Source: a virus. From it: DNA of 54,457 nucleotides. The notes under the pieces were generated by a model that was given only the letters and a program-made list of their open reading frames with translations, ran no database searches and was not told the DNA's origin. Numbering within the stretch: position 1 is the first letter of the stretch; every line of letters begins with the position of its first letter. Position numbers and translations under genes: made by a program. The stretch lies in the UHGV virus genome UHGV-0096558. The stretch is one strand, 5' to 3'. Positions 1 through 54,457 of the stretch are shown piece after piece.

Positions 1-145
1 CAACATGTTGAACATATGCACCATTTAGATTTCCTTTATACCCACAATCACGCTCTGCGACACCGAAGTCAAATTCGCGGTTCATCTTGCGATTATATGC
101 TACTTGTTTATGTTCCCATTTTCTCATCCATTCATCGCGTTTCAT
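1..145 (-). CDS. hypothetical protein, N-terminal 48 codons; ORF runs off the left edge
   Basis: ATG at 145 (minus), open to position 1 (MKRDEWMRKWEHKQVAYNRKMNREFDFGVAERDCGYKGNLNGAYVQHV); begins 10 nt after lipoprotein gene stop; frame-compatible with the ORF fragment at 54282-54457. Confidence 0.4.
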   Translation of the reverse strand, partial: MKRDEWMRKWEHKQVAYNRKMNREFDFGVAERDCGYKGNLNGAYVQHV

Positions 146-154
146 GTTTCACCC

Positions 155-814
155 TTAATTCCAGTTGCAAGCGTTTTTTACTTTGTCGATGTGGTTATAA
201 AGACCATCAATGTTAAACACTGCTTTCTCAATGTCGCCAGCTTCCGGCACTACTTCAATGATAAATTGTTTTTCGTTAACCAGATTTTTAATCATTGGAA
301 TGGCTTTTTTGCCGTTCCATAATCCAAGAGCTTTATAGTTAGTTGACCGCCCCCATTCAGTGGCTACAGCTTTGTGATCACCGATCCGGTAGTTAATATA
401 AGTAGTGTCCCCGGCGTCAGTTACACGGTGTGACCATGCTACGAACATTTTTGTTTTATTACCCTGGCAAGCAATTGTTAATACCGGTTTATTCTTATCC
501 TGTGCCTTCAGTGCCGGGAAGGCATCAAGACTTCCGCTGAAATGATCTGCTTTCACAAAAAGGAACACGTTTTTTGTGTCCTGCATATCATCTTTTCTTT
601 CGACCACAAGCCACTGTTTACCAGCTTTTTCTTTTGCTAACTGTGCCTCATATGCGGCTTGTTTTGCTTGTTGTTCCGCAAGCCATTTAGCATTTTTCTC
701 AGCCAATGCTTGTTGTTCTTGAGTGGTCACTATAGGCGCTTTTTCATTATCCTCATTGCAACCAACCAGACCCAATACCGCCGCAATCATTGCCACTTTT
801 GCTAACCGTTTCAT
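155..814 (-). CDS. lipoprotein, 219 aa (signal peptide with lipobox LVGC, coiled-coil segment, C-terminal globular domain); cargo gene
   Basis: ORF track; N-terminus MKRLAKVAMIAAVLGLVGC; RBS GGGGTGGG upstream of ATG at 814. Confidence 0.65.
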   Translation of the reverse strand: MKRLAKVAMIAAVLGLVGCNEDNEKAPIVTTQEQQALAEKNAKWLAEQQAKQAAYEAQLAKEKAGKQWLVVERKDDMQDTKNVFLFVKADHFSGSLDAFPALKAQDKNKPVLTIACQGNKTKMFVAWSHRVTDAGDTTYINYRIGDHKAVATEWGRSTNYKALGLWNGKKAIPMIKNLVNEKQFIIEVVPEAGDIEKAVFNIDGLYNHIDKVKNACNWN

Positions 815-826
815 AACCCACCCCGC

Positions 827-916
827 TTAGTTTTTATTTTTAAGTGATTTTAACATTTCTTCAATGAAATCCGCATAGCGTTCATGTTCGTGGGGACGGT
901 AGTTTACGTTTTTCAT
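827..916 (-). CDS. small ORF, 29 aa (MKNVNYRPHEHERYADFIEEMLKSLKNKN)
   Basis: Manual translation; AGAGGA-like RBS 7-12 nt upstream; stop abuts the lipoprotein gene RBS. Confidence 0.3.
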   Translation of the reverse strand: MKNVNYRPHEHERYADFIEEMLKSLKNKN

Positions 917-1074: not shown

Positions 1075-3417
1075 ATGGCTACCAGTGTAGGTACAATTTA
1101 TTACGAAGTTGACGCGAAAACTGGTCAACTTCTCGTTGCACAACGACAGGCAGACCAGGCCTTTGACCGTATAGAGCGCGGCGCAAAACAGGCTGACCGC
1201 CAGGTAAACACCCTGAAAACATCCATCAAGGCACTGACCAGGGTTATCCATTTGCTAATTGCTGCCGAGGCTGTGCGCCAATTTATGGATATGGCGGAGC
1301 AAGCAAAAATGCTTCGCGTAAAAATCAAAATGCTTACGGGCGATGCGGAGTCCGCCGGACGGGTTTTCGACGGCCTGAAAGCAATATCCAGGGAAACGGG
1401 GCAAAGCCTGAAGGATACTGGCGAACTATGGCAAGGCCTGGCTATCTCACTGAAGAACACGTCCGCTACGGAAGGGCAATTGCTTAACCTGGTTGGTACG
1501 ATTCAGAAAATGGGGGCGTTGGGCGGTGCGTCAGCGGAGCAGATGTCAAACTCAATGCGTCAATTCCGTCAGTCTATCGACGGAGGCGTGCTTCGTGCTG
1601 AAGAATTCAATAGCCTGTTAGAGAACACCCCGACCATCGTACAGACAATGGCCCGCCAGATGGGGTTATCTATGGGCCAATTCCGCGCAGAAATGCTGGA
1701 AGGCAAGATCACGGCTGAAAGGATGGTTAACGCAATCCAGGCGGCTACGCAGGAAACAAACGAGAAGTTTGCGCAGTTGCCGCGCACATCCGGCATGGCC
1801 CTGAATGAGCTTAAAGTCGAGGTTATGGGGCTTGTTGAGCAGTTGGATGATCTTTTCGGTGTATCCGATACGGTTGTCGCTGGTATCGATCTTGTCACGA
1901 AAGGTGTTAAGGCTTTAGGTGAAGGCGCTGATTTCGCTAAAACCTGCTTTAACACACTGAAGACGGCTGGTAGCGAATTTATTGATATATTTGAAGATGT
2001 CGGAATCAAGGCTGGCGAGGTAGCGGAGAAGATCATCGCAATGGTCACGCCAATCAAAGCACTAATGGACGCCTATAAATGGATGAAGGAGGTTGTAGGG
2101 GAACAAACAGACGAATATAACAGCAACTACGAGAAGAAATACGGTAAGACCGTTGGTAAGGTCATGCAATTACAGGATGATCTGACCGCAGCAATCCAGG
2201 CTACAGAGGAAGCAAGGAAAAATGAACAGAATGCCGCCAATGACGGAGCGATTACCGGATTCGACAAGCCAGTAGACAAACCTAAAAAACAGAAAAAAGA
2301 GAAGAAATCAGAAGCTGATCGGCTTGGTGATAAAGGTATAAGCGTTTCTGACCAGTACAACAAAGACGCCGCCGCTATGCGCAAAGCGTTAGAGAACGGC
2401 AAGGCCATTGATGCTGCATTCGCCCAGGGTAAAATCACCCTCCTTGAGTACCGCGCCGCGCAAAAAGGGATAGGCAAGGAACTGAAGGAAGAATTAGCGC
2501 AAATTCCGGTAGAGGAATTGCGTGATAAATGGGCGCAAATAGTAAGCCCGATGGATCAGCTTAAAGGCGAGGTTGACCCTATTCAGCAGGTCCAGAATGA
2601 ATGGGCAGTCCGTAAGCAAATGCTTATCGACCTGGGCGTTACGGAAGCGCAACAGAAACAGGAACTGTTAGCCTATGAGCAGCAGATCCGCGATCTAAAG
2701 TGGGAACAATGGCAGGCGCAAAGCGACACAAACAGTCTGATAGGTTCTTGTGTCAACGGCCTAAAAGGTGGCATGAGTAATGCGCTTGTTGGTCTGTTAA
2801 ACGGTACTCAATCGCTTAGCGATGTATTCGCAAACTTGGGTAGCAATATTCTTGGTTCAGTAGGGAATAAACTTGCGGAAATTGCTGGCGACTGGATAGC
2901 CGATCAGATCATGATGGAGACACAAAGCAAGGCAACGCAGGCAAGTACAACGGCTGGCGCGGTAGCGGCACAAGGCCAGATTGCAGCGGCGGCGGCCCCG
3001 GCAGCGGCGGCAACAGCGGCGTCAACTGGCGGCGCATGGGCGGCGGCTGGTTCGGCGGCACTTACTGCGATCATGTCGCTGGCGGCGTCAATTTTTGGCG
3101 GCGGGCGATTTAATGGTGGTAGCGTCATTGGTGGCAATATGTACCGCGTAGGGGAACACAACAGGCCGGAGCTATTCCAGACGTCTAACGGAAACCAATA
3201 TATGATTCCGGGCGAGAACGGCAGAGTTATCCCTGGTCGTGATATTGGCGGCGGTGGCGGTATCAGTATGCCTGTCAGTATCACCATTCAGACCACAAAC
3301 GGATTTAGCGACGAGGACAGCCGCAGACTTGAGCAAACAATGGAACGTGTAGCAATGAAAATGATAACAAGGGAATCACAAAGACCGGGCGGAATATTGC
3401 AGCCGCGCCGCAAATAA
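1075..3417 (+). CDS. tail tape measure protein, 780 aa
   Basis: Long helical protein with Ala/Gly-rich C-terminal region and a lambda H-like C-terminal motif; lies immediately upstream of M-L-K-I-J homologues. Confidence 0.75.
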   Translation: MATSVGTIYYEVDAKTGQLLVAQRQADQAFDRIERGAKQADRQVNTLKTSIKALTRVIHLLIAAEAVRQFMDMAEQAKMLRVKIKMLTGDAESAGRVFDGLKAISRETGQSLKDTGELWQGLAISLKNTSATEGQLLNLVGTIQKMGALGGASAEQMSNSMRQFRQSIDGGVLRAEEFNSLLENTPTIVQTMARQMGLSMGQFRAEMLEGKITAERMVNAIQAATQETNEKFAQLPRTSGMALNELKVEVMGLVEQLDDLFGVSDTVVAGIDLVTKGVKALGEGADFAKTCFNTLKTAGSEFIDIFEDVGIKAGEVAEKIIAMVTPIKALMDAYKWMKEVVGEQTDEYNSNYEKKYGKTVGKVMQLQDDLTAAIQATEEARKNEQNAANDGAITGFDKPVDKPKKQKKEKKSEADRLGDKGISVSDQYNKDAAAMRKALENGKAIDAAFAQGKITLLEYRAAQKGIGKELKEELAQIPVEELRDKWAQIVSPMDQLKGEVDPIQQVQNEWAVRKQMLIDLGVTEAQQKQELLAYEQQIRDLKWEQWQAQSDTNSLIGSCVNGLKGGMSNALVGLLNGTQSLSDVFANLGSNILGSVGNKLAEIAGDWIADQIMMETQSKATQASTTAGAVAAQGQIAAAAAPAAAATAASTGGAWAAAGSAALTAIMSLAASIFGGGRFNGGSVIGGNMYRVGEHNRPELFQTSNGNQYMIPGENGRVIPGRDIGGGGGISMPVSITIQTTNGFSDEDSRRLEQTMERVAMKMITRESQRPGGILQPRRK

Positions 3418-3420
3418 ACA

Positions 3421-3452
3421 AAAACCCCGGTACAATGCCGGGGTTATCTTTT
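3421..3452. terminator. bidirectional rho-independent terminator (stem CCCCGG / CCGGGG with flanking A- and T-runs)
   Basis: Hairpin at 3425-3443 between convergent genes (tape measure +, 58-aa ORF -). Confidence 0.6.
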
Positions 3453-3627
3453 AGTTATTCTCAAAACTTGTATATCCTCTTTCAATTTTCCCGCCTCTTA
3501 CACTTCTTGCAAATACTGCATCAGCATGTTTGAAAAATGGTTCAGTATATGTGTCTCCTTTACTATCCATCCATTTCACGATCCAGGCTATACGTTTTAC
3601 ATTGCTTTTATTTGCCGGGTTTTTCAT
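3451..3627 (-). CDS. hypothetical protein, 58 aa (MKNPANKSNVKRIAWIVKWMDSKGD...)
   Basis: Manual translation (below ORF-track size cut-off); GGAGG 9-13 nt upstream of ATG at 3627; stop adjacent to terminator. Confidence 0.5.
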   Translation of the reverse strand: MKNPANKSNVKRIAWIVKWMDSKGDTYTEPFFKHADAVFARSVRGGKIERGYTSFENN

Positions 3628-3746
3628 TTTATTTTCCTCCGCAAATTACAATCTTCCGTTTCTGGCTATATAGCTGCGAGAAAACATCACCAACCAAATA
3701 TTCCAGATCTCCCGCCAGGTGAATTTATCGTCCTCCATATCCCGCC

Positions 3747-4001
3747 TCACTTATGCGCCCCTTTAACCCCGCAGTGGCGGTTATATTCCAGATGATCGAT
3801 GATTAACCAGACTTTGAGATCTTCGCTAAACAGCCGCCAGTCAGGGTTAATATCGAATTTAAAACCGTAACCATCGCGTAACTTTTTGGGGCGCGCCTCT
3901 TTCTTCAAAAATGCTTTAAGCAGTTCCTTACCCTTCTTGATAATCCGGTCCTGTGCGTTTTTCTGTACTTTCAGGTTTTTGTCGATCGCTACCAGTTTCA
4001 T
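3747..4001 (-). CDS. hypothetical protein, 84 aa; cargo gene between tape measure and M
   Basis: ORF track; RBS GGGGGTGAG upstream of ATG at 4001. Confidence 0.6.
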   Translation of the reverse strand: MKLVAIDKNLKVQKNAQDRIIKKGKELLKAFLKKEARPKKLRDGYGFKFDINPDWRLFSEDLKVWLIIDHLEYNRHCGVKGAHK

Positions 4002-4020
4002 AGCTCACCCCCGATTATCC

Positions 4021-4176
4021 TTAATTAAGAGCCTTCAGGAAGAAACCACGGTATTCATCTTCTTTTGCATTCATCATGAATTGACCGTATTTGAATGCAT
4101 CGTCGAAACCCTTAACGATTGCTATTTCCACTTGTTCGAATGCGTTGTTTAGCATTACCACTACATAGCGTTTCAT
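4021..4176 (-). CDS. hypothetical protein, 51 aa (MKRYVVVMLNNAFEQVEIAIVKGFDD...)
   Basis: Internal start of ORF 4021..4227 with strong RBS AAGGAGG; 20 nt upstream of next gene in the same cassette. Confidence 0.5.
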   Translation of the reverse strand: MKRYVVVMLNNAFEQVEIAIVKGFDDAFKYGQFMMNAKEDEYRGFFLKALN

Positions 4177-4242
4177 TTTTGGGCCTCCTTCGTTGGTACT
4201 GCTTTTCTTCTTGCTTTCTATATACATCTTGATGCGTGCTAT

Positions 4243-4330
4243 GTGAAGCCATTTTGTAAACTAGCTATAATCATTGTGATGAAGATCTCATTTTTTGCGT
4301 AGAATCGCGTAAAAGTATATACAAAATGTA
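4243..4330. promoter_or_regulatory. divergent control region carrying GTGAAGCCATTTTGTA (4243-4258, identical 16-mer at 1017-1032) and TATACAAAATGTA (4318-4330), then RBS and M start
   Basis: Read directly. Confidence 0.4.
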
Positions 4331-4999: not shown

Positions 5000-5248
5000 T
5001 CATAACGCCCCCTTCAAATATGTCAATCCCTTATCAGTGACGAATGAATGATTTACCTGGTTTTCATCCGTCATGATGATGAATAACTTTTCCTGTAGGT
5101 ATTTTGCTTTCGGGTACAGCGTTAAGCAGACCTGGTACAGTATCCCGCGTTCAATCAGTAAATCAATGAATTCATGTTCATGATAACCGACAAGGCGGGC
5201 GGCCTGCTTCAACGTGTACACATAATTACTGTGATTGCGCCGCGCCAT
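5000..5248 (-). CDS. hypothetical protein, 82 aa (possible helix-turn-helix region)
   Basis: ORF track; RBS AAGGCGG upstream; last gene of a 3-gene minus-strand cassette. Confidence 0.55.
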   Translation of the reverse strand: MARRNHSNYVYTLKQAARLVGYHEHEFIDLLIERGILYQVCLTLYPKAKYLQEKLFIIMTDENQVNHSFVTDKGLTYLKGAL

Positions 5249-5257
5249 ATTGCCGCC

Positions 5258-5611
5258 TTATTTATTGAACGCGCCAAGGTTGTCGATACAGAAATCTTTC
5301 GCCGCTTTTTCGTATTCGCGTTTTGCTTCAGGATCATCTGCCGGGAAACCGTGCGCGTGTATTTCCGGGCAAGACTGATCCATAGAATCCGCAAGGTTTT
5401 CTTTAAAGCAAGCGCCGTTATCAATATCGTATTTCATACATTCCACCTTATCCGGTATTTGCACTGGAGTAATTTTGAATTCTCTGGCGCGTCCGAAGAA
5501 TCGAACAAGTTTTTCTCCTTCCTCGACTGCCATTTCGTAACTGTCATGCAAGCCGTAACCTTCCCAATCATCACTACCAGCCATCCAGACATCAAGACGA
5601 TACTTTTGCAT
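5258..5611 (-). CDS. hypothetical protein, 117 aa
   Basis: In-frame internal ATG of ORF 5258..5689 with RBS GAGGG upstream; acidic protein. Confidence 0.5.
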   Translation of the reverse strand: MQKYRLDVWMAGSDDWEGYGLHDSYEMAVEEGEKLVRFFGRAREFKITPVQIPDKVECMKYDIDNGACFKENLADSMDQSCPEIHAHGFPADDPEAKREYEKAAKDFCIDNLGAFNK

Positions 5612-5615
5612 TTTG

Positions 5616-5780
5616 CTAACCCTCATATTTGACAGGTTTGATCTGGTATCCCAAAACGCGGTCATCCTCCGAAAGTTCAAGCGCATCAATCAGCGCTTCC
5701 CCCTCGTCGTCATACAGAGCGATAACCTTTTCCCTCCCGTCAGTCATGAACACCGTCAACTTCCATAGCTTTTCAGTCAT
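5616..5780 (-). CDS. hypothetical protein, 54 aa (MTEKLWKLTVFMTDGREKVIALYDDEGE...)
   Basis: Internal start of ORF 5616..5900 with GGAGG 6 nt upstream; first gene of cassette. Confidence 0.4.
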   Translation of the reverse strand: MTEKLWKLTVFMTDGREKVIALYDDEGEALIDALELSEDDRVLGYQIKPVKYEG

Positions 5781-5909
5781 CATGCACCTCCGCGCCATTT
5801 TGTTAACTATGCTTCCGTTTGAGTAAAATATACATATTGTAAAAACCGCGATCAATCCATTTTGGTATGATTTAGCGTGACGCAGATCACAAAATGACAA
5901 GGTGAGAAA

Positions 5910-7835: not shown

Positions 7836-10800
7836 ATGGGCGGCGGTGGTGGTAAAGCAAAAACACCAGTTTTATTAAACGATAACTTGTATCATAAGCA
7901 GTTTTATCGCGTCCTGGATATCCTGTCAGAAGGGCCGATTTATGGCCCTGTCAATCAGGCGGCACCGTTAAACTGCGTAATGCTTAATGATACGCCTATA
8001 ACTGACACCGTGGGTAACGCAAGTATCCCCGGCGTTAGTATTGCGTGGCGTCCTGGTAGTCTCGACCAGTCTCCAATCAATGGATTTAACTCCATTGAAT
8101 CGACTGTAATGGTCAATGCACAGGTTAAGCACGATACGCCGATTATACGCACAGTATCAGACAGAAATGTCAATCGTGTACGTCTTAATATTGGCGTTGA
8201 TTCTCTGGTATCGAGCGACAACCAGGGGAACCAGTACGAAACATCCGTACATTTAGCTATAGATATTAAACCTTCATCATCATCGTCATGGACTATAGTT
8301 AAAGATGTAATTATCGGACCGGGTAAAATTAGCGGGGAATACCTTGAATCACACATCATTGATGCGCCGAGTGAGTACCCTTTCGATATTCGCGTTCGCA
8401 GAATTACGGCAGATAGCACCAGCGATCTACTTCAAAACGACACACGCTGGAATAGCTACAGCGAGATCATAGATGACAACCTGTCATATCCTCACACGGC
8501 GGTAGCTGGCTGTGTTATTGATCACGATCAGTATACTGATACACCGACCCGCGCTTATCATCTTCGCGGGCTGATTGTTGACGTGCCGGACAACTATAAC
8601 CCTGAAGCGCGCACGTATTCCGGTTTATGGCTTGGTGGATTTAAAAAGGCGTACACCAATAACCCTGCTTGGCTTTTCCGGTATTTGATTAAAAATGAAC
8701 GCTTTGGCCTTGCACGACAGGCTGGTTATATTGACGTTGATGACGGCGCTTTATACGTGCTTTCTCAATACTGCGACCAGTTGGTTGATGATGGCTACGG
8801 CGGCCTTGAGCCTCGCATGACGCTTAACGCTTACATCACAGAGCAAATGAGCGCCCGCGACTTACTTGATAATATAGCTGGCATGTTCCGTGGTATTGCG
8901 TTATGGGACGGGCAACGTCTTACAGTGATGATTGATGCGCCACAAGATCCGATTGCAACTATCACGAACGCAAATGTCGTAGATGGTGCATTCACCCGTT
9001 CGAGCCTTGCCCGCGCGGAGTGCTATAACGCCGTGATTGTATCCTGGACCGATCCGGGTAACGGTTGGGAACAGTCAAAAGAATACGTTTCTGACGATGA
9101 ACTAATCGCCCGCGACGGCTACAACGAAACCACACTGGAGGCGTTCGGGTGCACGTCTCGCGGACAGGCTTACCGCGCTGGTAAATGGCTAATCGAAACA
9201 GCAAAACGCGAGCCGTCGAAATTTACGTTTAAAATGGCCCGTGACGCCATTCACTTTACACCAGGTGATATCATTGAGATCCTCGACAATAACCGCGCGG
9301 GCGCTCGCTTAGGCGGTCGTATCGTGGCGAACAATGGCAAAGTGATAACGGTCGACAAGGTTGATTCTGAATATATCGCGGCTGGTGACACCATCAGCTT
9401 ACTTGATAGCGATGGTAAATTTAAAAAACACCAGATCACCGGAGTTAACGGAAACAATATTACCCTTGCTGCGGCCCCGGCATGGATTCGCAATGGCACT
9501 GTTTTTGCTGTATCGACTGAAGCAGCAAAACCCGTTTTATGTAGGATCACCAGCGTAGCAGAAACAGAAAATAACAGCGTATACACTATCGAAGCCGCAC
9601 AGCACGACCCTAACAAACAGGCCGTAGTTGATGAAGGCGCAGTCTTCGAAATCAACAACGACACGCTGAATCATTTCCGTGTGCCTAACATTGAAAACCT
9701 CAAGGTAATGAATGTTGGTTCCGAAACCGTTCAGTGCTCCGCGTCGTGGATGACGCAGACCACAACTCACCGTCTGACCTTTGAATTACGTGTTTATAAC
9801 GAAGACAGCAAAGTTGTCGCCAGTTATGAGACGACAGAATTCCGGTATGATTTTAATGGCCTGAATTGCGGTCAATACTCTTTAGGCGTTCGCGCCCGCA
9901 ATGATACCGGTATGAAAGGCGCGGAATCTATCGTTGATCTCGTTATTGGTGCACCTTCAAAACCAATTGGTGTTAACTGGATACCAGGCGTATTTCAGGC
10001 TACTGTGTACCCAATCAGCAAAACAACTCTGACCAGCGATACAAGCTATGAATTCTATTTTGCTGGCGAAACACAAATCACTAATCCGGCATTAGTCACC
10101 ACTAATGCACAATATACCGGACGTGGTTATCAGTGGACGTTCGGCGGAATGAACACGGGCCATACTTATTACGTTTATGTGCGCACGCGTAACGCTTTTG
10201 GTGTATCAGATTTCGTAGAGGCGTCAGGTAAACCAACAGAGGATTTCGATGAAATCAGCGATTACGTAACCAAAGACGTGATGAATTCTGACCAATTTAA
10301 AGGAATGGTTAGCGACATTAAAGATCTTGGCGACCGCACCGACCTTATCGAAAGCGCCACTGACGACCTTAAAACAGCCACTGATAATCTTACCAATATC
10401 ACAAACGGCCTAAGAACTGATACTGACGACCTTATTGCAGAAACAGGGTCAATAAAAGCTGACACAGATACGCTTAAAAAAGACACGGAAGATCTTTATA
10501 AAAAAGTTCAGGAAAACGCCGATGATATCGGACAGCATGAGGTAAGAATTGACTCATTAGAGGTATCAAGTGAAAAAACCGACAGCGAACTGGCGCAGGC
10601 AAAAGCAAGCCTACAAAACGCATCGCTTGCCCTTATTAATAACTCGCTTGCACAGACTAACACCCGCGTAACTCTTACCGCTCAGTACAAGAAAGGTAAA
10701 ACAGAGACGAAAGCGGAAATTGACCGTATTGACAACGTTATCGCTGAAGAGAAAAAAGCGACTGCGGAATCACTGGAAACCATCACGGCAGAGATGAACA

Positions 10801-12275
10801 CGATGGATACCAACCTGAAAGGTCAGATTTCCAATGTTCAGCGTGCAGTAGCTGACGAGGCGAGCGCCCGCGCTGAAGCTATTAGTGGTGTAAACGCATC
10901 GATCACCAACCTTGATAAGAAAACCGACGCCAACGTAAACCGCCTTGATCAAGCTATCGCTGACGAAACCAGCGCCCGGACTCAGGCCGTCAGTGACGTG
11001 AACGCAAGCATCACCACGCTGGACAAGAAAACTGATGCCAGTGTGAAACGACTTGATCAAGCAATCGCAGATGAAACAAGCGCCCGGACTCAGGCCGTCA
11101 GTGACGTGAATGCAAGCATCAGCACGCTTGATAACAAGGTGACAAGCAATGTGACCCGTATCGACAAAGCTATTGCAGATGAGACAAAGGCACGCACAGA
11201 CGCAATAAGCAGCCTTAACTCATCGCTTACCAGTACGATTAATTCGAAAGTATCTGAAGTATCAACAGCACTTTCTACGCATGAAACATCAAGCGCGGAA
11301 AAATTCAGCCAGATCTCTGCATCTTTCGAAGCGGTAAACTCAAGTATCACAGAATGGTCGCAGACCATGACAACGGCGGACGAGGCATTATCAACCAAAA
11401 TTGATCAGTTAACAGTAACCGTTAACGGGAACACAACGGCGATCGAGACAACATCGAAAGCGTTAACCGACTTCAAAGGTAACGTTGATGCGTCATATTC
11501 AATTAAGATTGCCACCGACAACAACGGCAGAAAATACGCAACAGGTATGTCGCTTGGCCTTACTGGTAGCGGTACTGACGTTCAATCGCAGTGTATTTTC
11601 CTTGTTGACCGCTTCGTGTTAATGACTGCCGCCAACGGCACATACCAGACGCCTTTCTATGTCACTAACGGCGCAATGTATGTGCGCGAAGCGTTTATTA
11701 AAGACGCATCGATCACGACTGCAAAAATAGCACAGCAGATTCAATCAACCAACTTTGCTTCCGGTTCCGCTGGGTGGATGATTAACAAAAACGGCAGCGC
11801 GCAATTTAATAACGTAACTGTAAGGGGGACCGTTTACGCAACATCCGGCGAGTTTTCTGGGACCGTTAAAGCTAAAGCATTTGAAGGTGGCATTAGTTCC
11901 GGTACGCAGGGAACAAGAAGTTCCAGCGGGACGATCACAATTAACGTAACCCCAGCAACCCCGAATAGTATGCTATTGCTTTTCGTTTCTGTATACACGG
12001 CTGGCGTGCGCACAGCAAGCGGCGACCATACCGTCACTCTCCATGCGGGAGGTCGTAGTTTTAACGTTCCTCCGTCTTATCTTGCAGGTAGCGGTGTAGC
12101 GTCAACTTACAGGTTCGATTCAACTATAATTATCCCGGTTACAGGGACCAATAAGAGGGCGGTTTCGATATACTTAAGCCAAGTGGGCCACGTATCATTA
12201 ATAAATACAGATATAAGACTTCTCGGCGCTGTATTACTAAACACCTCATTCTCATCAGGTACTTTTGATTTTTGA
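7836..12275 (+). CDS. J: host specificity protein J (central tail fibre / tip attachment), 1479 aa, with inserted coiled-coil repeat region
   Basis: N-terminal region similar to lambda gpJ over roughly 750 aa (e.g. DILSEGPIYGPV, NPAWLFRYL, EPRMTLNAYIT, GCTSRGQAYRAGKWLIE). Confidence 0.9.
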   Translation: MGGGGGKAKTPVLLNDNLYHKQFYRVLDILSEGPIYGPVNQAAPLNCVMLNDTPITDTVGNASIPGVSIAWRPGSLDQSPINGFNSIESTVMVNAQVKHDTPIIRTVSDRNVNRVRLNIGVDSLVSSDNQGNQYETSVHLAIDIKPSSSSSWTIVKDVIIGPGKISGEYLESHIIDAPSEYPFDIRVRRITADSTSDLLQNDTRWNSYSEIIDDNLSYPHTAVAGCVIDHDQYTDTPTRAYHLRGLIVDVPDNYNPEARTYSGLWLGGFKKAYTNNPAWLFRYLIKNERFGLARQAGYIDVDDGALYVLSQYCDQLVDDGYGGLEPRMTLNAYITEQMSARDLLDNIAGMFRGIALWDGQRLTVMIDAPQDPIATITNANVVDGAFTRSSLARAECYNAVIVSWTDPGNGWEQSKEYVSDDELIARDGYNETTLEAFGCTSRGQAYRAGKWLIETAKREPSKFTFKMARDAIHFTPGDIIEILDNNRAGARLGGRIVANNGKVITVDKVDSEYIAAGDTISLLDSDGKFKKHQITGVNGNNITLAAAPAWIRNGTVFAVSTEAAKPVLCRITSVAETENNSVYTIEAAQHDPNKQAVVDEGAVFEINNDTLNHFRVPNIENLKVMNVGSETVQCSASWMTQTTTHRLTFELRVYNEDSKVVASYETTEFRYDFNGLNCGQYSLGVRARNDTGMKGAESIVDLVIGAPSKPIGVNWIPGVFQATVYPISKTTLTSDTSYEFYFAGETQITNPALVTTNAQYTGRGYQWTFGGMNTGHTYYVYVRTRNAFGVSDFVEASGKPTEDFDEISDYVTKDVMNSDQFKGMVSDIKDLGDRTDLIESATDDLKTATDNLTNITNGLRTDTDDLIAETGSIKADTDTLKKDTEDLYKKVQENADDIGQHEVRIDSLEVSSEKTDSELAQAKASLQNASLALINNSLAQTNTRVTLTAQYKKGKTETKAEIDRIDNVIAEEKKATAESLETITAEMNTMDTNLKGQISNVQRAVADEASARAEAISGVNASITNLDKKTDANVNRLDQAIADETSARTQAVSDVNASITTLDKKTDASVKRLDQAIADETSARTQAVSDVNASISTLDNKVTSNVTRIDKAIADETKARTDAISSLNSSLTSTINSKVSEVSTALSTHETSSAEKFSQISASFEAVNSSITEWSQTMTTADEALSTKIDQLTVTVNGNTTAIETTSKALTDFKGNVDASYSIKIATDNNGRKYATGMSLGLTGSGTDVQSQCIFLVDRFVLMTAANGTYQTPFYVTNGAMYVREAFIKDASITTAKIAQQIQSTNFASGSAGWMINKNGSAQFNNVTVRGTVYATSGEFSGTVKAKAFEGGISSGTQGTRSSSGTITINVTPATPNSMLLLFVSVYTAGVRTASGDHTVTLHAGGRSFNVPPSYLAGSGVASTYRFDSTIIIPVTGTNKRAVSIYLSQVGHVSLINTDIRLLGAVLLNTSFSSGTFDF
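10833..11242 (+). repeat. in-frame tandem repeats inside J: two near-identical 108-bp units (10941-11048, 11049-11156) flanked by degenerate copies; exact 32-mer at 10970-11001 and 11078-11109
   Basis: Read directly; encodes repeated motif RLDQAIADETSARTQAVSDVNASIT.LDKKTDA. Confidence 0.7.
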
Positions 12276-12280
12276 TACCA

Positions 12281-12305
12281 GCCCCGCTTCGTGCGGGGTT
12301 TTTTT
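12281..12305 (+). terminator. rho-independent terminator (GCCCCGC / GCGGGG then T7)
   Basis: Immediately after J stop. Confidence 0.7.
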
Positions 12306-12388
12306 ATACGCATTGTAAACTCAAGTTCGTTCTTGTAATGACAAAACGTTAAAATGGTAACGTTAATTAACGAAATGGAGTCATTGCG

Positions 12389-15300
12389 ATGATTTATACA
12401 ACAGGCACAATTGCAATTAGCGGCAATACCTTAACTGGTGTTGGCACTAATTTTACAGCGCCGCTTTCCCTTATCCGTGTAGGCTGTACACTGATCGCCG
12501 TGGGAAACCCGGTGCAAATTTTCTCAATCACAGAGATTAAAAGCGCTACAGAGCTTTCCGTTTACCCTGCCGCAAATCCCGCAATCCCTGCCGGGACAGA
12601 ATTTAGCATCCTGCTTACAGACTCAATTTCCGTCGATGGTCTTGCTCAGGACGTAGCTGAAACACTGCGTTACTACCAGGGCAAGGAAACAGAGATCGCC
12701 GCAGCCGTCGAGTGGTGGAAAGATTTCGGCGGTGATGGTCAGATGGATCAGCTTCTTGCCAACATTCGCGAAGAAACAGCGAAATCAACCGCCAACGCTC
12801 AAAAAACAGAAGCTGACAAGAACACAACCGAAGGTTACAAGAATGCTGCGGCATCATCTGCAACAGCGGCAAAATCATCTCAGGATGCAGCAAAAGCCAG
12901 CGAAACATCAGCCAGCAACAGCAAAACAGCGGCGGCAACCAGCGAAACCAATGCGGCGAAATCAGCAGCCGATGCGCTTAATTATAGAAATCAAGCTCAA
13001 TCCATTGTTGGCAGCAACATTGGCTTAGGTGCATCGCCGCGTGATTGCCCTGACATTTCCGGCAATCCATCCGGTTATATTGGCTTTATGCGCATTATGG
13101 CTGGTGCGAAAGGTTTTCCATCAATCGCATCAGGTGAAAGCAGCCTCACAGGCTTTATTAGCGGAGTTGACGGAAGTCCGACATATGCAGGTATTTTCCA
13201 GGGCTGGGCCTCAAGATCGCTTTATACTTACCGTTGGAGTGAAGGTACAGGCCCGCAATGGACTCGACACGCAAGAAAAGACGAAGTAGATCGCATTTCT
13301 CAAATGAGTGGCGATCAGACGCGCATTTACGCTGGCAACGGTAAAACTTATTTAGAGGTTGGCAATGATCGTGCATGGGGTGTTTATAATAGCGAGACTG
13401 GTCAATGGAAACCGTTAGATCTTGCTCAAGGCGGTACGGCAGGACGTAACGCAGGACAAGCACGCACAAACCTTGAGGTTATGTATGAGAAAAAATCAGA
13501 TCTAAGTTCCACAGATATTAATACGCTTACTGGCGAGTATTCCGGTTTTTATTACCAGGGGTTAAACTCCAACGCTACGTCAGAGCGTGGCTATCCTGTA
13601 TCAAGTGCGGGCGCATTGCTTGTCATCAGAAACAATGCAAACGGTAACGCAGGATGCACGCAGCTTTATTTCCCTTACAATGCCACGACTGGCACATTTT
13701 ATATGCGCCAGTACATTATTATTTCCTCTACGACTGGCTGGGAGTGGACCGCATGGAAGAAATTTCAGTCTCTTGATTTTACTGATAGCCCGCAATTTAC
13801 AAACCTTAATCTTGTAAGATCTTCAGATGTAGCAACTACCGCAGGCGGTATTTTACAAAGCATCCTTAATGATGCATCAGGCGCACAAAGAGCGCGAGCG
13901 CGTTTTTATTCAGAATTCCGTGGCGATGGTAAATCATGGGCCACAATTCACCTACAGAATGGAGATAAAAACCAATACGCAGGATTAAGCGAAGACGGCG
14001 ACTTTACTTTAAATAGCGGTGATTTTATAGGTAGGCGTTTAAGATTAACAGCTAATTTTAATTATCCCGTAGAAATATCAAGCGCTCATCCTACCATCAG
14101 ATTCAACGAAACGGATCGGCCATCAAATACACCTTACTATAGCCTTATCTTTGATGGTGGTAACTGGCGTATTCAGAAAGACGGATATGACGGGACGAAA
14201 ACAAGCTATTCAATGAGCTATAACTATGCAAGGGATGAAATAGAAGTACCTAACCTGAAAGTCAATGCAATTGCAGTACCTACAAACCTTGAACAAACTA
14301 AAACAAATATGCAAATCCCGTTTGCAGGTATTGCGCATTGGGTTGATTACAACGCTCCTACTGGTGCTGAAGCTGGTAAATATTACCCTGTAATTGTCAG
14401 CCATCCTTCATACTATAACGGCGATTTCCTTGTTGAAGTTGCAATGAGAACTAAGTCAATATCTGGCAGTGAAGAGCCTAACTGTAACGCAATTCACTTA
14501 TGGTTGCGTGATGGTGGCTGGTCAGATATGGGTGCGGCTGTATTTGGTCATTATTTCTGTTACGCAAACAATGAAAACGCGATACTTTGCGTGCGCGGTA
14601 CTGATAAAGGTCAGTATCCACATAACGCAATCTATGTTCGCGGTGACGCTTTCCCTATTCGTCTTGCCGTCACGGTTGGCTGTACTGTAACAATACCTAC
14701 AGCAGACTGGAAACCTTCAACAGCGGGCGATAGCCCGACTTATAAATGGGGTATCACTAATTCCTCTGATGGTATTGATTTAGATACTTACGGCATTAGC
14801 AATAACTTACTTGATTTCACATCGAGTGCAACAGGGTTTTATTGCACTGATACATACCGCAATAAATATGGTGATTCTTATCAGGTTATACAATCAAACG
14901 GAACTATACAGCCAGCTAACGGAGTTGCAACATATTTAAATCAAGACTGGAACGCACAACAATCAGACGGAGTAAACAAGTTTAAACCGATTGCTGGTCA
15001 AACGAATACGCCGGAAAATAATGTAGTTTATGGCGGCTTTCATGTTGGCTTTAGCGGTAACTACGCTACTCAATTCGCCGGACGTAATTCAAAATTCTAC
15101 GCCAGAAGTTTTGAGGCCGGAGTAGATAAAGGCTGGTGTCAACTTGCTACGCTTAACGCATCTTCGCAAAGGTGGACTGGATACCAACAATTCAAATCGA
15201 CGGAGTTTTTCGCTGATACTTACACAAGAAAAGTAAGTTTAGCCGTCGCAAATTCAGCGGTAAGAAATGGCGAGCTTTATTTGTGGGGTGCAGAAAGCCG

Positions 15301-15856
15301 TCCGACTGTATTTGAGTACAAGATAAAAGATCCAGACACAAACGCGTCACTTTCATGGGTTTTTTACGCGCAGCAAAACACGGATGATTCTTGTCAATTT
15401 CAGGTTAACGGTGCTGTAAACTGCGTAACAGTAAACCAGTCATCAGACCGAGACTTGAAAGACAATATTCAGGTTATAGGTGATGCTACTGAAGCTATCC
15501 GTAAAATGAACGGGTACACCTACACGCTTAAGGAAAATGGCCTGCCTTACGCTGGCGTTATCGCTCAGGAGGTCATGGAGGCACTACCGGAAGCGGTAGG
15601 ATCGTTTACTCATTACGGTGAAGCATTGCAAGGCCCGACCATTGACGGCAACGAGCTACGCGAAGAAACGCGCTATCTTAATGTTGACTATGCGGCGGTG
15701 ACTGGTTTACTTGTCCAGGTGGCACGCGAAACAGATAACCGCGTCACCGAACTGGAAGAGGAAAACGTCAGCTTACGTGCTAACATTGCCGTCATGGATG
15801 AGCGGATCACAAAACTTGAAGCGCTTGTCAGGAAGTTAACCGGAAGCGAAGAATAA
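12389..15856 (+). CDS. tail fibre protein, 1155 aa, with C-terminal S74-type intramolecular chaperone (autoproteolytic) domain
   Basis: Ala/Ser/Thr-rich repeat region near N-terminus resembling side tail fibre proteins; C-terminal segment ...SSDRDLKDNIQVIGDATEAIRKMNGYTYTLKENG... plus terminal coiled coil typical of endosialidase-type chaperone domains. Confidence 0.8.
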   Translation: MIYTTGTIAISGNTLTGVGTNFTAPLSLIRVGCTLIAVGNPVQIFSITEIKSATELSVYPAANPAIPAGTEFSILLTDSISVDGLAQDVAETLRYYQGKETEIAAAVEWWKDFGGDGQMDQLLANIREETAKSTANAQKTEADKNTTEGYKNAAASSATAAKSSQDAAKASETSASNSKTAAATSETNAAKSAADALNYRNQAQSIVGSNIGLGASPRDCPDISGNPSGYIGFMRIMAGAKGFPSIASGESSLTGFISGVDGSPTYAGIFQGWASRSLYTYRWSEGTGPQWTRHARKDEVDRISQMSGDQTRIYAGNGKTYLEVGNDRAWGVYNSETGQWKPLDLAQGGTAGRNAGQARTNLEVMYEKKSDLSSTDINTLTGEYSGFYYQGLNSNATSERGYPVSSAGALLVIRNNANGNAGCTQLYFPYNATTGTFYMRQYIIISSTTGWEWTAWKKFQSLDFTDSPQFTNLNLVRSSDVATTAGGILQSILNDASGAQRARARFYSEFRGDGKSWATIHLQNGDKNQYAGLSEDGDFTLNSGDFIGRRLRLTANFNYPVEISSAHPTIRFNETDRPSNTPYYSLIFDGGNWRIQKDGYDGTKTSYSMSYNYARDEIEVPNLKVNAIAVPTNLEQTKTNMQIPFAGIAHWVDYNAPTGAEAGKYYPVIVSHPSYYNGDFLVEVAMRTKSISGSEEPNCNAIHLWLRDGGWSDMGAAVFGHYFCYANNENAILCVRGTDKGQYPHNAIYVRGDAFPIRLAVTVGCTVTIPTADWKPSTAGDSPTYKWGITNSSDGIDLDTYGISNNLLDFTSSATGFYCTDTYRNKYGDSYQVIQSNGTIQPANGVATYLNQDWNAQQSDGVNKFKPIAGQTNTPENNVVYGGFHVGFSGNYATQFAGRNSKFYARSFEAGVDKGWCQLATLNASSQRWTGYQQFKSTEFFADTYTRKVSLAVANSAVRNGELYLWGAESRPTVFEYKIKDPDTNASLSWVFYAQQNTDDSCQFQVNGAVNCVTVNQSSDRDLKDNIQVIGDATEAIRKMNGYTYTLKENGLPYAGVIAQEVMEALPEAVGSFTHYGEALQGPTIDGNELREETRYLNVDYAAVTGLLVQVARETDNRVTELEEENVSLRANIAVMDERITKLEALVRKLTGSEE

Positions 15857-15885
15857 GAGGTGATGTGCGAAGAACATTGCCGCGC

Positions 15886-15916
15886 GAAACGAGGCTAACG
15901 CCTCGTTTCTTTTTGC
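15886..15916 (+). terminator. rho-independent terminator (AAACGAGGC / GCCTCGTTT then T-run)
   Basis: After tail fibre gene. Confidence 0.65.
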
Positions 15917-16182
15917 GTACCATTGTGTGTACCATATTATCTTAAGGTTAAATGAGATATGAATAAAATAATGATTTATATATCGTTTTTGCCACTTTGC
16001 ATAATGTCTCTTTCTAATGCTACATACCGCGCACAAGCGTAAACATACGCAAGCAAAATCACCCCTAACACCATGAATTTAGTAGATTTACTTGTTTTCG
16101 CTGTAAACAAGCGCGCTTTTGCGTTATATTGCGTAAACCATGATTTGTGTACCAGGTTGTGCACCAAATAAGGGGGGCGATT

Positions 16183-25378: not shown

Positions 25379-25457
25379 CCCGGGAAACACCAAAACGTAA
25401 ACATAAAACGCCATTTATTGTTTAAATATCAATAATATATAAAATATTTTAAAAAAG

Positions 25458-25499
25458 TATACAAAATGGATTGACTCGGTGTTTTACGGGGCGTATATT
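25458..25499 (+). promoter_or_regulatory. candidate early promoter: motif TATACAAAATGGA then TTGACT (25471-25476), 17-nt spacer, TATATT (25494-25499); AT-rich upstream
   Basis: Near-consensus sigma-70 hexamers with 17-bp spacing. Confidence 0.5.
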
Positions 25500-25847: not shown

Positions 25848-26138
25848 ATGAGCGTTACAATTATGTATGGCAAATGTGACAGTAAACTGAATGCCAGGGA
25901 ACGCAGAAGGATAAAAAGAGAAAACGAAAGAAAATCATCACCTGCAATCAATAAAACAGACAATGTGGATAAAGCTATTCGATTTGCAAACGAGGAAAGA
26001 TGCAAACCAAATAGCATTAAAGAACGTCGCAAAGGATCAGTAAAATGGTATACGGAAAATGAAAGCGGCAGCTACTACCACGCAACGCAACCACGCCATT
26101 TAGGGGAAAAACCCCTGGATAAAGTCCGCTACCATTAA
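25848..26138 (+). CDS. basic protein with N-terminal arginine-rich motif (RERRRIKRENERK); possible N-like antiterminator
   Basis: ORF track; first gene after long leader; arginine-rich motif reminiscent of lambda N. Confidence 0.5.
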   Translation: MSVTIMYGKCDSKLNARERRRIKRENERKSSPAINKTDNVDKAIRFANEERCKPNSIKERRKGSVKWYTENESGSYYHATQPRHLGEKPLDKVRYH

Positions 26139-26168
26139 TACAAAATGTAAACATTCGGAGGTGACATT

Positions 26169-39126: not shown

Positions 39127-39184
39127 ATGTGATCTTCATCACAAGGTATACAAAATGGCATTGTTTCGGCAGTGCCATTTTGTT
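39127..39184. promoter_or_regulatory. compound element: palindrome GTGATCTTCATCAC, then TATACAAAATGGCA / TGCCATTTTGT inverted repeat (11-bp arms, 11-bp spacer)
   Basis: Read directly; upstream of gene 39225. Confidence 0.4.
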
Positions 39185-39224
39185 ATAAAGAAGCTGAAGA
39201 GAGAACAATGCGGAGGGCAGAAAA

Positions 39225-42091: not shown

Positions 42092-42549
42092 AGGCGTTAA
42101 TCATCGCCGCTATCGTTTGTGTCGTTGTTGGGCTTGTTGCCGCGCTTAGTCACTGTCAGTCAGTGATAAACACAATGCAAAGCGAGCTAACTACTACGCA
42201 GGGCGCACTAAAAACAGCAAGTAACACTATTCAGCAGATGAAGGAGCGAAACGCCGAACTGTCAAAACTTGATAAGAGGTATCACGATGAAATTAAAGCT
42301 ATCAGATCTGACATTGCTGATCTGCGTGCTGGTATTGATAGCGGTGCTATCCGGTTGCACGTCAACGCAATACCAGTGCGAGTGTCAGACGCCACCGGAA
42401 CCGCCAGCAGCATTGATGGAGCCGCCTGTAGACTCACTCCCGACGCTGAATCGGCTTATCTATCCCTCAGAGAACAACTAAAAGAGAAAGACGCGAAGAT
42501 CACCGGATTGCAGGACTACATCAAGACGCAGTGCATACGCAAAGAATAA
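42082..42549 (+). CDS. i-spanin (Rz-like)
   Basis: N-terminal TM then coiled coil; GTG at 42082 with RBS GGGGGG (alternative ATG at 42067); overlaps endolysin stop. Confidence 0.65.
42287..42481 (+). CDS. o-spanin (Rz1-like outer-membrane lipoprotein) embedded in the i-spanin gene in another frame
   Basis: Signal peptide with lipobox LSGC, Pro-rich mature region; entirely inside the Rz-like gene. Confidence 0.65.
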   Translation: MKLKLSDLTLLICVLVLIAVLSGCTSTQYQCECQTPPEPPAALMEPPVDSLPTLNRLIYPSENN

Positions 42550-53039: not shown

Positions 53040-53525
53040 ATGTCTCAGACTTGCGAAAAAGGCGCATTTTCAGGCCGCGACGTTGCTGTATTCTTCGCTA
53101 TCGCTTGTCCAAATGCGAAGCCGGACACTGATGATTATAAAGCGTTAGGCATGATGCGTGGTAAAACCCTTTCCGTCGAATGGGAAACCGCAGACGCCAC
53201 CGCTGATAAATCCGCCGACTACACTAAAGAATCCCTGGTCACTTACAAAAATATTTCATTCTCAGGTGACGGCGTATCGCGTACTGAAGAAATCCACAAC
53301 CAGAAGACACTAAAACGCCACGTTATTAACCCAGGCCAAACGACCGGATCTCAGCCGTATGTGTGGCTGAAAATTGTTTCTCCTGTAGACGTAACTGAAG
53401 GGCCGTTCCTTTGCACTTCCTTTAAAGAAGAAAACCCGCACGATGACGCGTCTACCTGGTCTATTGAGTGCTCAAGCGCCGGACAGGTGACTTGCGGCGA
53501 CATCCCGACAGATCCGGTGGTGTAA
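53040..53525 (+). CDS. major tail (tube) protein
   Basis: 161 aa; position between tail completion and chaperone genes. Confidence 0.5.
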   Translation: MSQTCEKGAFSGRDVAVFFAIACPNAKPDTDDYKALGMMRGKTLSVEWETADATADKSADYTKESLVTYKNISFSGDGVSRTEEIHNQKTLKRHVINPGQTTGSQPYVWLKIVSPVDVTEGPFLCTSFKEENPHDDASTWSIECSSAGQVTCGDIPTDPVV

Positions 53526-53578: not shown

Positions 53579-54256
53579 ATGATTCATGTTCGTACCGGAC
53601 AATTTGCAGCGGTGGTGAACGGTAAACGCTATGAATTTAACCCGTGCTTCGCTGCGATGGCTAAGATAGGTAATGACAGGGAACTGGTTGAATACTTCGC
53701 GCTTATCCATGGAAGCAAATACCCTTCACGCTTACCTGTAGATCCAGACCTCCGCAAACGCGTTATGGCGCGGTGTTATGGTGAGATAGTGCAAACGTCA
53801 ATACACATCCTTAAATGTTGCTCAGACGACGAAACAGGCCCGTTATTGGGCGAATGCTGGTTTACTCCTTCAGGTAAGTTAAAGTTAAAGCCCGGATTAA
53901 TGCCGATCGAGGATGTCATCACGCTTGCGCAGCACTGCATGTACCACGGTCTTATTGGTGATGGCCCGGAAGAGGAATCCGGGGAGATCCAGGAGGGGGA
54001 ATATAAGCCAACGTTTGACATACTGGAATTCGTTTATTCTGCCGTTGCTCACCTGGGATTGTCAGAATCTGAAGCATGGGCCATGACTATGACCGGATAT
54101 AGGGCCGCTGTACGCGCTAAAACGCCGCCAGACGAAAGAAATGAGAGAAGCAAACCAAACGTTCACATAAATAAACGTGCTTATGACGAGCAAATGGAGG
54201 CCGCTAAAAGGGTGTTAGAAATGATGAAAAATCGTGAGCAAGAAAAAGCCCGGTAG
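53579..54256 (+). CDS. putative tail assembly chaperone
   Basis: Position between tail tube and (across the window junction) tape measure; acidic; no frameshift partner ORF recognised. Confidence 0.4.
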   Translation: MIHVRTGQFAAVVNGKRYEFNPCFAAMAKIGNDRELVEYFALIHGSKYPSRLPVDPDLRKRVMARCYGEIVQTSIHILKCCSDDETGPLLGECWFTPSGKLKLKPGLMPIEDVITLAQHCMYHGLIGDGPEEESGEIQEGEYKPTFDILEFVYSAVAHLGLSESEAWAMTMTGYRAAVRAKTPPDERNERSKPNVHINKRAYDEQMEAAKRVLEMMKNREQEKAR

Positions 54257-54271
54257 ATCCGGGCGTTTTTG
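54247..54271. terminator. bidirectional terminator-like hairpin (GCCCGG / CCGGGC) with T-run downstream and A-run upstream
   Basis: Between convergent chaperone gene and minus-strand ORF fragment. Confidence 0.5.
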
Positions 54272-54281
54272 TTAAGTTCGC

Positions 54282-54457
54282 TTATGCTATTTTTTCGTAA
54301 AGCACATTCATCTGTGTGCGAATCACTGTTAATATATTGATTGCTGCGTTCTTATTAATGCGTTTATTCGCTACTATTTTTGTTTTCCCATCAATAACAA
54401 CCAGATCTGCGTGCAATACATGGTTGAAGTTGACAATGTAATAATACTGTTTATCGC
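54282..54457 (-). CDS. hypothetical protein, C-terminal 57 codons; ORF enters from beyond the right edge
   Basis: Open minus-strand frame ending at TAA (54282-54284): ...DKQYYYIVNFNHVLHADLVVIDGKTKIVANKRINKNAAINILTVIRTQMNVLYEKIA; frame-compatible with the 5' fragment at 1-145. Confidence 0.4.
   Translation of the reverse strand, partial: DKQYYYIVNFNHVLHADLVVIDGKTKIVANKRINKNAAINILTVIRTQMNVLYEKIA

Follow-up and report, generated by a model that had tools for sequence, protein, structure and literature searches.

A VasI/TagO-family lipoprotein gene in an exchangeable slot of a temperate siphophage tail operon: a possible periplasmic barrier to incoming phages

Results

A lipoprotein of the VasI/TagO family encoded antisense to the tail genes

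Here we describe a minus-strand cassette in UHGV virus genome UHGV-0096558 (54,457 nucleotides (nt), the whole stretch being henceforth referred to as the window), the central gene of which (positions 155-814, as defined by the open reading frame (ORF) list and by Pfam and PHROG matches) encodes a lipoprotein of 219 amino acids (aa). Judged by its sequence the protein is a clear member of the known VasI/TagO family, and close copies are already annotated in RefSeq. The reading that we tentatively favour, and regard as a serious possibility short of a probable one, is that this is an accessory gene expressed in the lysogen and that its product, anchored in the outer membrane with its VasI/IalB-like domain turned toward the peptidoglycan, hinders the passage of incoming phages across the envelope. 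In such a mechanism the product would be exported by Sec and lipidated at Cys19, and Asn, rather than Asp, at position +2 would send it on to the outer membrane, into the inner leaflet. Here a helix of ~33 residues would then hold the compact beta domain a few nm into the periplasm, near the peptidoglycan, where it may act as a protein-binding barrier against envelope penetration or DNA delivery. Provided that the lipoprotein is made in the lysogen, as we presume, the outcome would be superinfection exclusion or defence in the periplasm and not the masking of a surface receptor.

The export signals of the protein are well defined. The lipoprotein begins MKRLAKVAMIAAVLGLVGC, and in its N-terminus, MKRLAKVAMIAAVLGLVG-C, an n-region rich in K/R and a hydrophobic core lead to a canonical lipobox, L16-V17-G18-C19 (signal peptide and lipobox, aa 1-19, nt 814-758, minus strand), with Asn as the +2 residue. 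Under the E. coli ‘+2 rule’, Asn at this position predicts sorting to the outer membrane, and the lipoprotein is thus probably an outer-membrane one. The signal is followed by a linker and a long helix (aa 20-64) and by the beta-rich VasI domain (aa 65-219, nt 622-158, minus strand). An AlphaFold2 model (predicted local distance difference test (pLDDT) 88.6, predicted template modelling score 0.77) contains a helix at residues 31-63 (pLDDT >90) and a mainly beta domain at residues 69-216. An earlier note on this DNA, made from its letters alone, had described a 219-aa lipoprotein with an LVGC lipobox, a coiled coil and a globular C-terminal domain. The lipobox and the globular domain are borne out by these results, but the coiled coil is not established, as the model gives one single long helix, rich in Ala, Gln, Lys and Glu, in which the heptad pattern is weak by eye.

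Remote homology search, which the same note had proposed as a check along with structure prediction, revealed the VasI/TagO family, which it had missed. Residues 55-218 match positions 25-184 of the 184-position Pfam profile PF11319 (VasI/EvfG/VC_A0118) with E=5.2e-16 and a score of 59.3 bits against a gathering cutoff of 26.5, and the protein also matches phrog_1848 (E=6e-57), which is annotated as of unknown function. The score against TIGR03360, the equivalog model for type VI secretion systems (T6SS), is 46.5 bits and lies below the cutoff of 124.2, so that the protein does not qualify as a T6SS equivalog; E. coli prophage copies that are 98% identical are named TagO by NCBI. A HMMER scan of 1.84 billion representative sequences returned 1153 relatives of the lipoprotein. 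A sequence search of the PDB with the lipoprotein gave chance-level matches only, and the viral structure models that match its model are all of uncharacterised proteins.

In an alignment of 28 diverse VasI sequences, C116, C216, T121, R143, P190, F200 and W218 (numbering of the lipoprotein) are invariant, G164-L165-W166 is conserved in at least 90%, and the family terminates in C-N-W. As the protein is exported, its two invariant cysteines probably form a C116-C216 disulfide. An N-terminal C-x(9-10)-RL-x-C-[YF]-D motif is common in the family, and in its place the lipoprotein has its lipid anchor, short linker and helix.

Homologues with 54-98% identity occupy the same slot in related prophages, the more distant copies having 54-78% aa identity. 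Pairwise ratios of non-synonymous to synonymous substitution (dN/dS) range from 0.08 to 0.26, and by this measure of purifying selection the lipoprotein gene is real and functional. Most of the variation lies in the linker and in the domain's N-terminal half, dN being 2-3 times higher in the latter though dS is saturated, and the helix core and the C-terminal half are conserved. The gene is rare, being present in only ~15 of 5426 complete E. coli genomes.

The cassette and its surroundings in the tail operon

The window is a circularly permuted, complete genome (~54.5 kb) of a temperate siphophage of the mEpimmI (mEp021) group, and its tape measure region has 81-86% nt identity to MagusPhagus, mEp021, mEp554, mEp010 and mEp044. 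The minus-strand cassette consists of a 29-aa ORF (916..827), the lipoprotein gene (814..155) and a 106-aa ORF that runs across the window junction, as the earlier note had already supposed. The 29-aa ORF (827-916; ORF list, conservation) is hydrophilic, lies 5' of the lipoprotein gene and has a GAGGA ribosome-binding site. The 106-aa ORF starts with an ATG at 145-143, 10 nt past the lipoprotein stop, and has the ribosome-binding site AAGGGTG; its 5' part (positions 1-145) holds 48 codons and the first base of codon 49, and its 3' part occupies 54282-54457, where the stop is TAA at 54284-54282. When the end of the window is joined to its start, the ORF is intact (145..1 + 54457..54285, stop 54284..54282), and its product is 100% identical to that of an annotated gene in the prophage of E. 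coli M1/5. Because of this identity, both window ends must be contiguous in nature.

On the far side of the junction, a G+C-rich bidirectional intrinsic terminator (54248-54264; GCCCGG-loop-CCGGGC with T-runs on both strands) closes both the antisense cassette and the converging plus-strand gene of the DUF6246/phrog_791 family (53579-54256). The latter is preceded by the tail tube gene (53040-53525) and had been called a tail assembly chaperone gene. That name is suggested by its position, the DUF6246 protein matching Phage_TAC_6 only weakly (E=0.095). On the other side the cassette diverges from a plus-strand gene (1075-3417, ORF list) for a 780-aa protein, the counterparts of which in MagusPhagus, mEp021 and E. 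coli prophages bear the annotation tape measure protein, with Pfam TMP_3 recorded for the corresponding genes at related loci. The antisense location within the tail operon, between the DUF6246 and tape measure genes, is therefore as first described. The neighbours of the cassette are the tail tube, DUF6246, tape measure and minor tail genes, and no T6SS genes lie nearby.

The base composition of the cassette differs from that of its surroundings, the G+C content being 0.32 in the 29-aa ORF, 0.42 in the lipoprotein gene and 0.37 in the 106-aa ORF compared to 0.48-0.51 in the flanking tail genes. To arrive at the tape measure gene, late plus-strand transcription would have to pass the terminator and cross the entire antisense cassette, an arrangement that would be typical of lysogen-expressed accessory genes. 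Orientation antisense to the late tail genes, low G+C, a terminator of its own and a conserved upstream region with a putative promoter (see below) all argue for an accessory gene.

A conserved slot for the exchange of exported proteins

The site between the DUF6246 and tape measure genes is, as comparison of the related loci shows, a conserved accessory slot in which genes for exported proteins are swapped. Whereas the earlier note had considered the placement of the lipoprotein gene unusual, a slot of this kind is conserved within the phage group. It had also treated the three ORFs as a fixed cassette, which does not hold. The VasI gene stands alone in L009; it is accompanied by the 106-aa ORF in the window, M1/5 and L014, and by an unrelated 124-aa lipoprotein gene (weak BamE-like match) in STEC308 and 2017C-4173W12. 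In L011-L013 the slot holds genes for a 160-aa secreted protein, the 106-aa protein and the 124-aa protein, and in mEp021 and MagusPhagus, where unrelated genes replace the lipoprotein cassette, a 138-aa secreted protein alone; many members of the group are without the VasI gene. We also considered whether the mEp021_63-type occupant is a diverged VasI, and rejected this, as hhalign aligned the signal peptide only and no Pfam or PHROG match was obtained.

Unrelated as they are, the genes that come first in the slot share the start MKRL[AI]K, after which a hydrophobic stretch follows (starts compared: window 758-814, L002 3470-3534, L001 3370-3433, L011 2982-3050). The upstream region is shared, and nt homology between the window and mEp021 ends at position 781, within the signal-peptide codons; therefore, the recombination breakpoint of cargo exchange lies inside the signal peptide. 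On these alignments, cargo is exchanged downstream of a conserved module of putative promoter, leader and signal peptide. The cassette has the attributes of a moron, namely an autonomous unit with atypical composition and a patchy distribution among close relatives, with the proviso that its promoter is predicted only.

The two small ORFs are, as their distribution shows, independent and optional neighbours of the lipoprotein gene and not its obligate partners. The 29-aa ORF is conserved as a coding sequence in four phages and is intact, with changes that are for the most part synonymous, in mEp021, MagusPhagus and STEC308. Compared to mEp021 it has an in-frame 3-nt deletion and ~10 synonymous versus 3-4 non-synonymous changes, and it is likely, on this pattern, to be a real small gene. 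Where present, it sits 5' of whichever exported protein fills the slot, and its product could be a leader or regulatory peptide. The prophages M1/5 and 2017C-4173W12, both of which bear the VasI gene, lack it through a clean 133-bp indel, and it matched no family in Pfam, PHROG, NCBIfam or PADLOC. The family of the 106-aa ORF is tiny, 5.8 billion proteins containing only three clusters of it at 90% identity, each from E. coli or metagenomes; the ORF gave no Pfam, PHROG or PADLOC family and no phage match by tblastn. It is also found in the absence of a VasI gene, after the different 160-aa secreted protein of L011-L013, and the VasI gene occurs in its absence; an obligate partnership was rejected on these grounds.

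Exchange of exported proteins in this slot lends further support to the proposed periplasmic barrier, as does the presence of other antisense cassettes in the same tail operon. Two such cassettes break the operon on the minus strand, at 3451-4227 and 5000-5900. In the former, small neighbours accompany a gene (3747-4001) for a ParE-like toxin and may make up a toxin-antitoxin pair with it; the latter contains a gene for a KilAC antirepressor-domain protein (5000-5248) and two ORFs for which no family could be assigned.

The divergent upstream region and an inverted repeat

By eye, a plausible sigma-70 promoter can be placed on the minus strand upstream of the cassette, with a -35 element TTCACT (1022-1017), a 17-nt spacer and a -10 element TATAAA (999-994); it is absent from the list of a consensus scan because the last base of the -10 element is A. 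The putative promoter is overlapped by an 18-nt inverted repeat, TTTATACAAAATG ... CATTTTGTATAAA (994-1037), located where the cassette and the tape measure gene diverge. The arms of the repeat are conserved in five relatives and its spacer is variable. The motif TTTATACAAAATG, with the core ATACAAAATG, is enriched in the genome (12 matches with at most 2 mismatches versus 3.25 expected) and forms a second inverted pair at ~39145-39190; further listed sites are at 4316-4328, 25456-25468 and 26135-26147. Single copies lie just 5' of several plus-strand genes, one of them beside an early promoter-like sequence, TTGACT-17-TATATT, that follows the gene for a CI-like repressor. An Rfam scan of positions 1-1300 produced sub-threshold noise only, the motif matching no Rfam family, and the motif is absent from the discussion of the paper on the mEpimmI phages (PMC11893012). 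We consider it a candidate operator or promoter element.

VasI-domain genes in other temperate phages

VasI-domain proteins are encoded in several unrelated temperate phages as well, by genes in accessory positions or in the lysogeny module. In Brucella phage BiPBO1 the VasI gene comes directly after, and on the same strand as, that for a CI-like repressor; a Labrenzia phage has it in the immunity region on the CI strand; and in P2-like phages of E. coli, Klebsiella and Citrobacter it lies between ogr and the integrase/attachment end. Two more distant homologues (P0016, P0019) lie on contigs too short to add to this comparison. The P2-like protein (L018, Xuanwuvirus P88_4B11, 2169-3399; L006, 3169-4399) has 297 aa with three N-terminal C-x-RL-x-C-Y-D repeats, and its gene is always preceded by one for a 110-aa zinc-ribbon membrane protein, possibly as a two-gene module. 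Pasteurella phage Pmp14 (L016, 1497-6417) carries, downstream of its tail chaperone genes, an island with three signal-peptide proteins, one of them clearly VasI. It is thus a second, unrelated siphophage with VasI cargo adjoining tail chaperone genes. Beside the VasI gene, the Pmp14 island also has a gene for a 652-aa protein with HATPase_c_3 and PD-(D/E)XK, which is a candidate nuclease of defence, and one for a KilA-N protein.

The homologues in the 28-sequence alignment carry signal peptides, lipoboxes or membrane anchors, and among ten long homologues a PG_binding_1 domain is fused after VasI in two and a TonB C-terminal domain in one. The VasI domain would accordingly always be extracytoplasmic as far as its sequences indicate, and the fusions would place its action at the periplasm and the cell wall. 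Both the accessory and lysogeny positions of VasI genes in other temperate phages and this extracytoplasmic, cell-wall-linked setting are consistent with the reading that we favour.

Discussion

A periplasmic barrier and its alternatives

The functional idea of the earlier note, a candidate superinfection exclusion or host-interaction factor modelled on T5 Llp and lambdoid Cor, stands in part. A lysogen-expressed envelope factor fits the low G+C, the dedicated terminator and the plausible promoter. The analogy with Llp and Cor, which had been drawn because such genes lie beside receptor-binding genes, does not fit, as the lipoprotein gene abuts the tape measure gene and lies ~7 kb from J (7836-12275). 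Within 7836-16150 of the window, J (1479 aa) is directly followed by a gene for a 1155-aa fibre protein, the C-terminus of which resembles, by eye, an intramolecular chaperone/peptidase domain, and then by the integrase gene.

Several observations weigh against a periplasmic barrier to phages. For this protein and its close homologues an anti-phage effect would have to be read from sequence and context; PADLOC, run with all three ORFs of the cassette, returned no match for any of them, the lipoprotein included; and the scan of the minus strand upstream of the cassette for consensus sigma-70 promoters found none, although lysogen expression is assumed. A factor engaged in an arms race might also show diversifying selection, of which there is no gene-wide signature, dN/dS being at most 0.26 everywhere it was measurable. 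Finally, the name of the family comes from T6SS clusters, and other envelope functions would be equally compatible with the anatomy of the protein.

Among such functions, a lysogenic-conversion envelope or virulence factor comparable to lambda Bor/Lom or Bartonella IalB, contributing to envelope robustness, serum resistance, adhesion or invasion, would suit an exported accessory protein, and we regard it as unlikely, if well worth keeping in mind. IalB itself has no known mechanism, and the related proteins with an IalB domain act in the periplasm as growth-pole factors; virulence is, in the literature, a label given by annotation only; and a gene in ~15 of 5426 genomes is not a common pathotype marker. 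We consider somewhat more improbable a role in connection with the T6SS, in which the phage copy either plugs into a host T6SS or shields the envelope of the lysogen from attack by the T6SS of neighbours. The above-threshold Pfam VasI match and the TagO name of the near-identical copies suggest such a role. The T6SS is moreover a phage-tail-like puncturing device, so that a periplasmic factor could conceivably act on either needle. Against it stand the TIGR03360 score far below cutoff, the phage tail operon as genomic context and the replacement of the N-terminal cysteine motif by a lipid anchor and helix. Related mEp phages, in addition, grow on E. coli K-12 W3110, which is not known to have a T6SS. 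The tagO gene does occur in E. coli T6SS-2 clusters, adjoining tssH (PMC10562709), but a 2026 review of T6SS accessory factors lists the function of VasI/TagO as unknown in any T6SS (PMC13584744).

A part in the phage's own lytic cycle seems very unlikely to us. The lipoprotein could in principle inactivate receptors or envelope sites on lysing cells, sparing the progeny from debris, or aid the disruption of the envelope. Keeping progeny from being wasted on debris is a second role of T5 Llp, and a lipoprotein with a periplasmic helix and weak, sub-threshold resemblance to Rz-like spanins and Lpp-type proteins (phrog_812, E=0.052; NF040598, E=0.095) would fit such a role. The phage has a spanin pair of its own, though (Rz1-like lipoprotein, 42287-42481), many group members do without the gene, and a gene antisense to late transcription is expected to be silenced rather than induced late. 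A structural lipoprotein of the virion was rejected in view of the Sec/lipobox signal, the antisense orientation and the absence of the gene from close relatives.

A broader and more speculative idea, which we hold to be a long shot, is that proteins with the VasI fold are general periplasmic ‘needle blockers’, which would attach to the tip of a tail-like puncturing device, or get in its way, during passage through the peptidoglycan. If true, this would explain the presence of VasI in T6SS clusters, as protection from firing by sister cells or by the cell itself or as guidance for the tube, and would also explain exported copies as superinfection-exclusion genes in several unrelated temperate lineages; the E. 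coli lipoprotein would then offer easy genetic access to an accessory protein of the T6SS. In any case, a stand-alone, phage-borne VasI lipoprotein is amenable to single-gene tests in E. coli K-12, which would give the sequence family its first phenotype. Should the lipoprotein block phage entry, as in the periplasmic barrier that we favour, it would add a periplasmic form of coliphage exclusion that does not mask a receptor, and would tie the SDIC4 defence fold (see below) to a large Pfam family. The slot, for its part, illustrates how cargo anchored by a signal peptide is exchanged within a tail operon, and may be useful for mining envelope-acting phage factors.

Comparison with known systems

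The homology to VasI/TagO (V. cholerae VCA0118 and TagO of the E. coli T6SS-2) spans the whole domain of ~155 residues, which is extracytoplasmic in both, and the phage lipoprotein has each of the conserved elements, namely the Cys pair, R143, G-L-W and, at the C-terminus, C-N-W. The phage copy differs in lying in a tail operon and not in a T6SS cluster, in scoring below the equivalog cutoff and in having a lipobox and long helix where the Cys-RLxC[YF]D motif would be. IalB of Bartonella (PDB 3dtd), a protein of alphaproteobacterial and chromosomal origin, is more remote, with 9% sequence identity and no Pfam IalB match for the lipoprotein.

With the exclusion lipoproteins Lpp021/Lpp010, Llp, Cor and Ltp the protein has in common that it is encoded by a phage or prophage, carries a lipobox signal peptide and would act at the envelope. 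Within the mEpimmI group, small lipoproteins encoded after J (Lpp021/Lpp010) have been shown experimentally to exclude phages of the group; their genes lie within the structural gene cluster and antisense to it, and 40 of 48 group members have a lipoprotein of this type (PMC11893012). None of the Lpp021/Lpp010 type was found in the window genome, where the only other lipobox ORF is that of the Rz1-like spanin. The use of lipoproteins for exclusion in the same phage group also supports a part in exclusion for the VasI lipoprotein. We considered whether the VasI and Lpp types are distributed in a complementary fashion, of which the loci gave no clear sign: the Lpp type is lacking here, and after J the prophages M1/5 and 2017C encode another small secreted protein. 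Lpp021 differs from the lipoprotein in being a Cys-rich protein of 72 aa whose gene adjoins J, and the two are unrelated in sequence (BLASTP E=6). Searches of Pfam, PHROGs and NCBIfam gave no match named as an exclusion lipoprotein, the sequences of Llp, Cor and Ltp themselves not having been compared directly. T5 Llp, lambdoid Cor and Ltp of Streptococcus phage TP-J34 are not known to share the fold of the lipoprotein. Ltp acts on the tape measure protein and thereby prevents the entry of DNA, the same kind of periplasmic mechanism as is proposed here.

A possible parallel in function is SDIC4B of Serratia defence islands, a protein that is described as VasI-like in fold and is reported to protect from phages on its own, the SDIC4 locus conferring 10-200-fold protection (preprint, 10.1101/2024.01.28.577318). 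The SDIC4B sequence in the supplement of the preprint has a cleavable signal peptide, because of which we take the protein to be periplasmic as well. It represents family PF27224 and phrog_3429, and its AlphaFold model (pLDDT 78) has strands and helices in the same order as the VasI domain. SDIC4B differs in being a soluble periplasmic protein that has neither lipid anchor nor helix and in being associated with BrxR and defence islands instead of a tail operon. A link to VasI at the sequence level was rejected, as the two belong to separate PHROGs and hhalign gave a probability below 1% in local and global mode, whether with the single sequence, an 18-sequence family alignment or profiles of 160 versus 120 sequences. 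A link at the level of the fold is plausible from the models: both proteins combine an N-terminal export signal with a small beta-rich domain, both models best match IalB at low root-mean-square deviation, and both families occur in phages (phrog_3429 and phrog_1848, respectively). The spacing Cys51-(49)-Gly100/Trp101-(50)-Cys150 in SDIC4B is close to Cys116-(48)-Gly164/Trp166-(52)-Cys216 in the lipoprotein, and this spacing and the order of the elements hint at a very distant homology. At the level of the fold, SDIC4B would provide an experimental precedent in support of a role for the phage lipoprotein as a periplasmic barrier to incoming phages.

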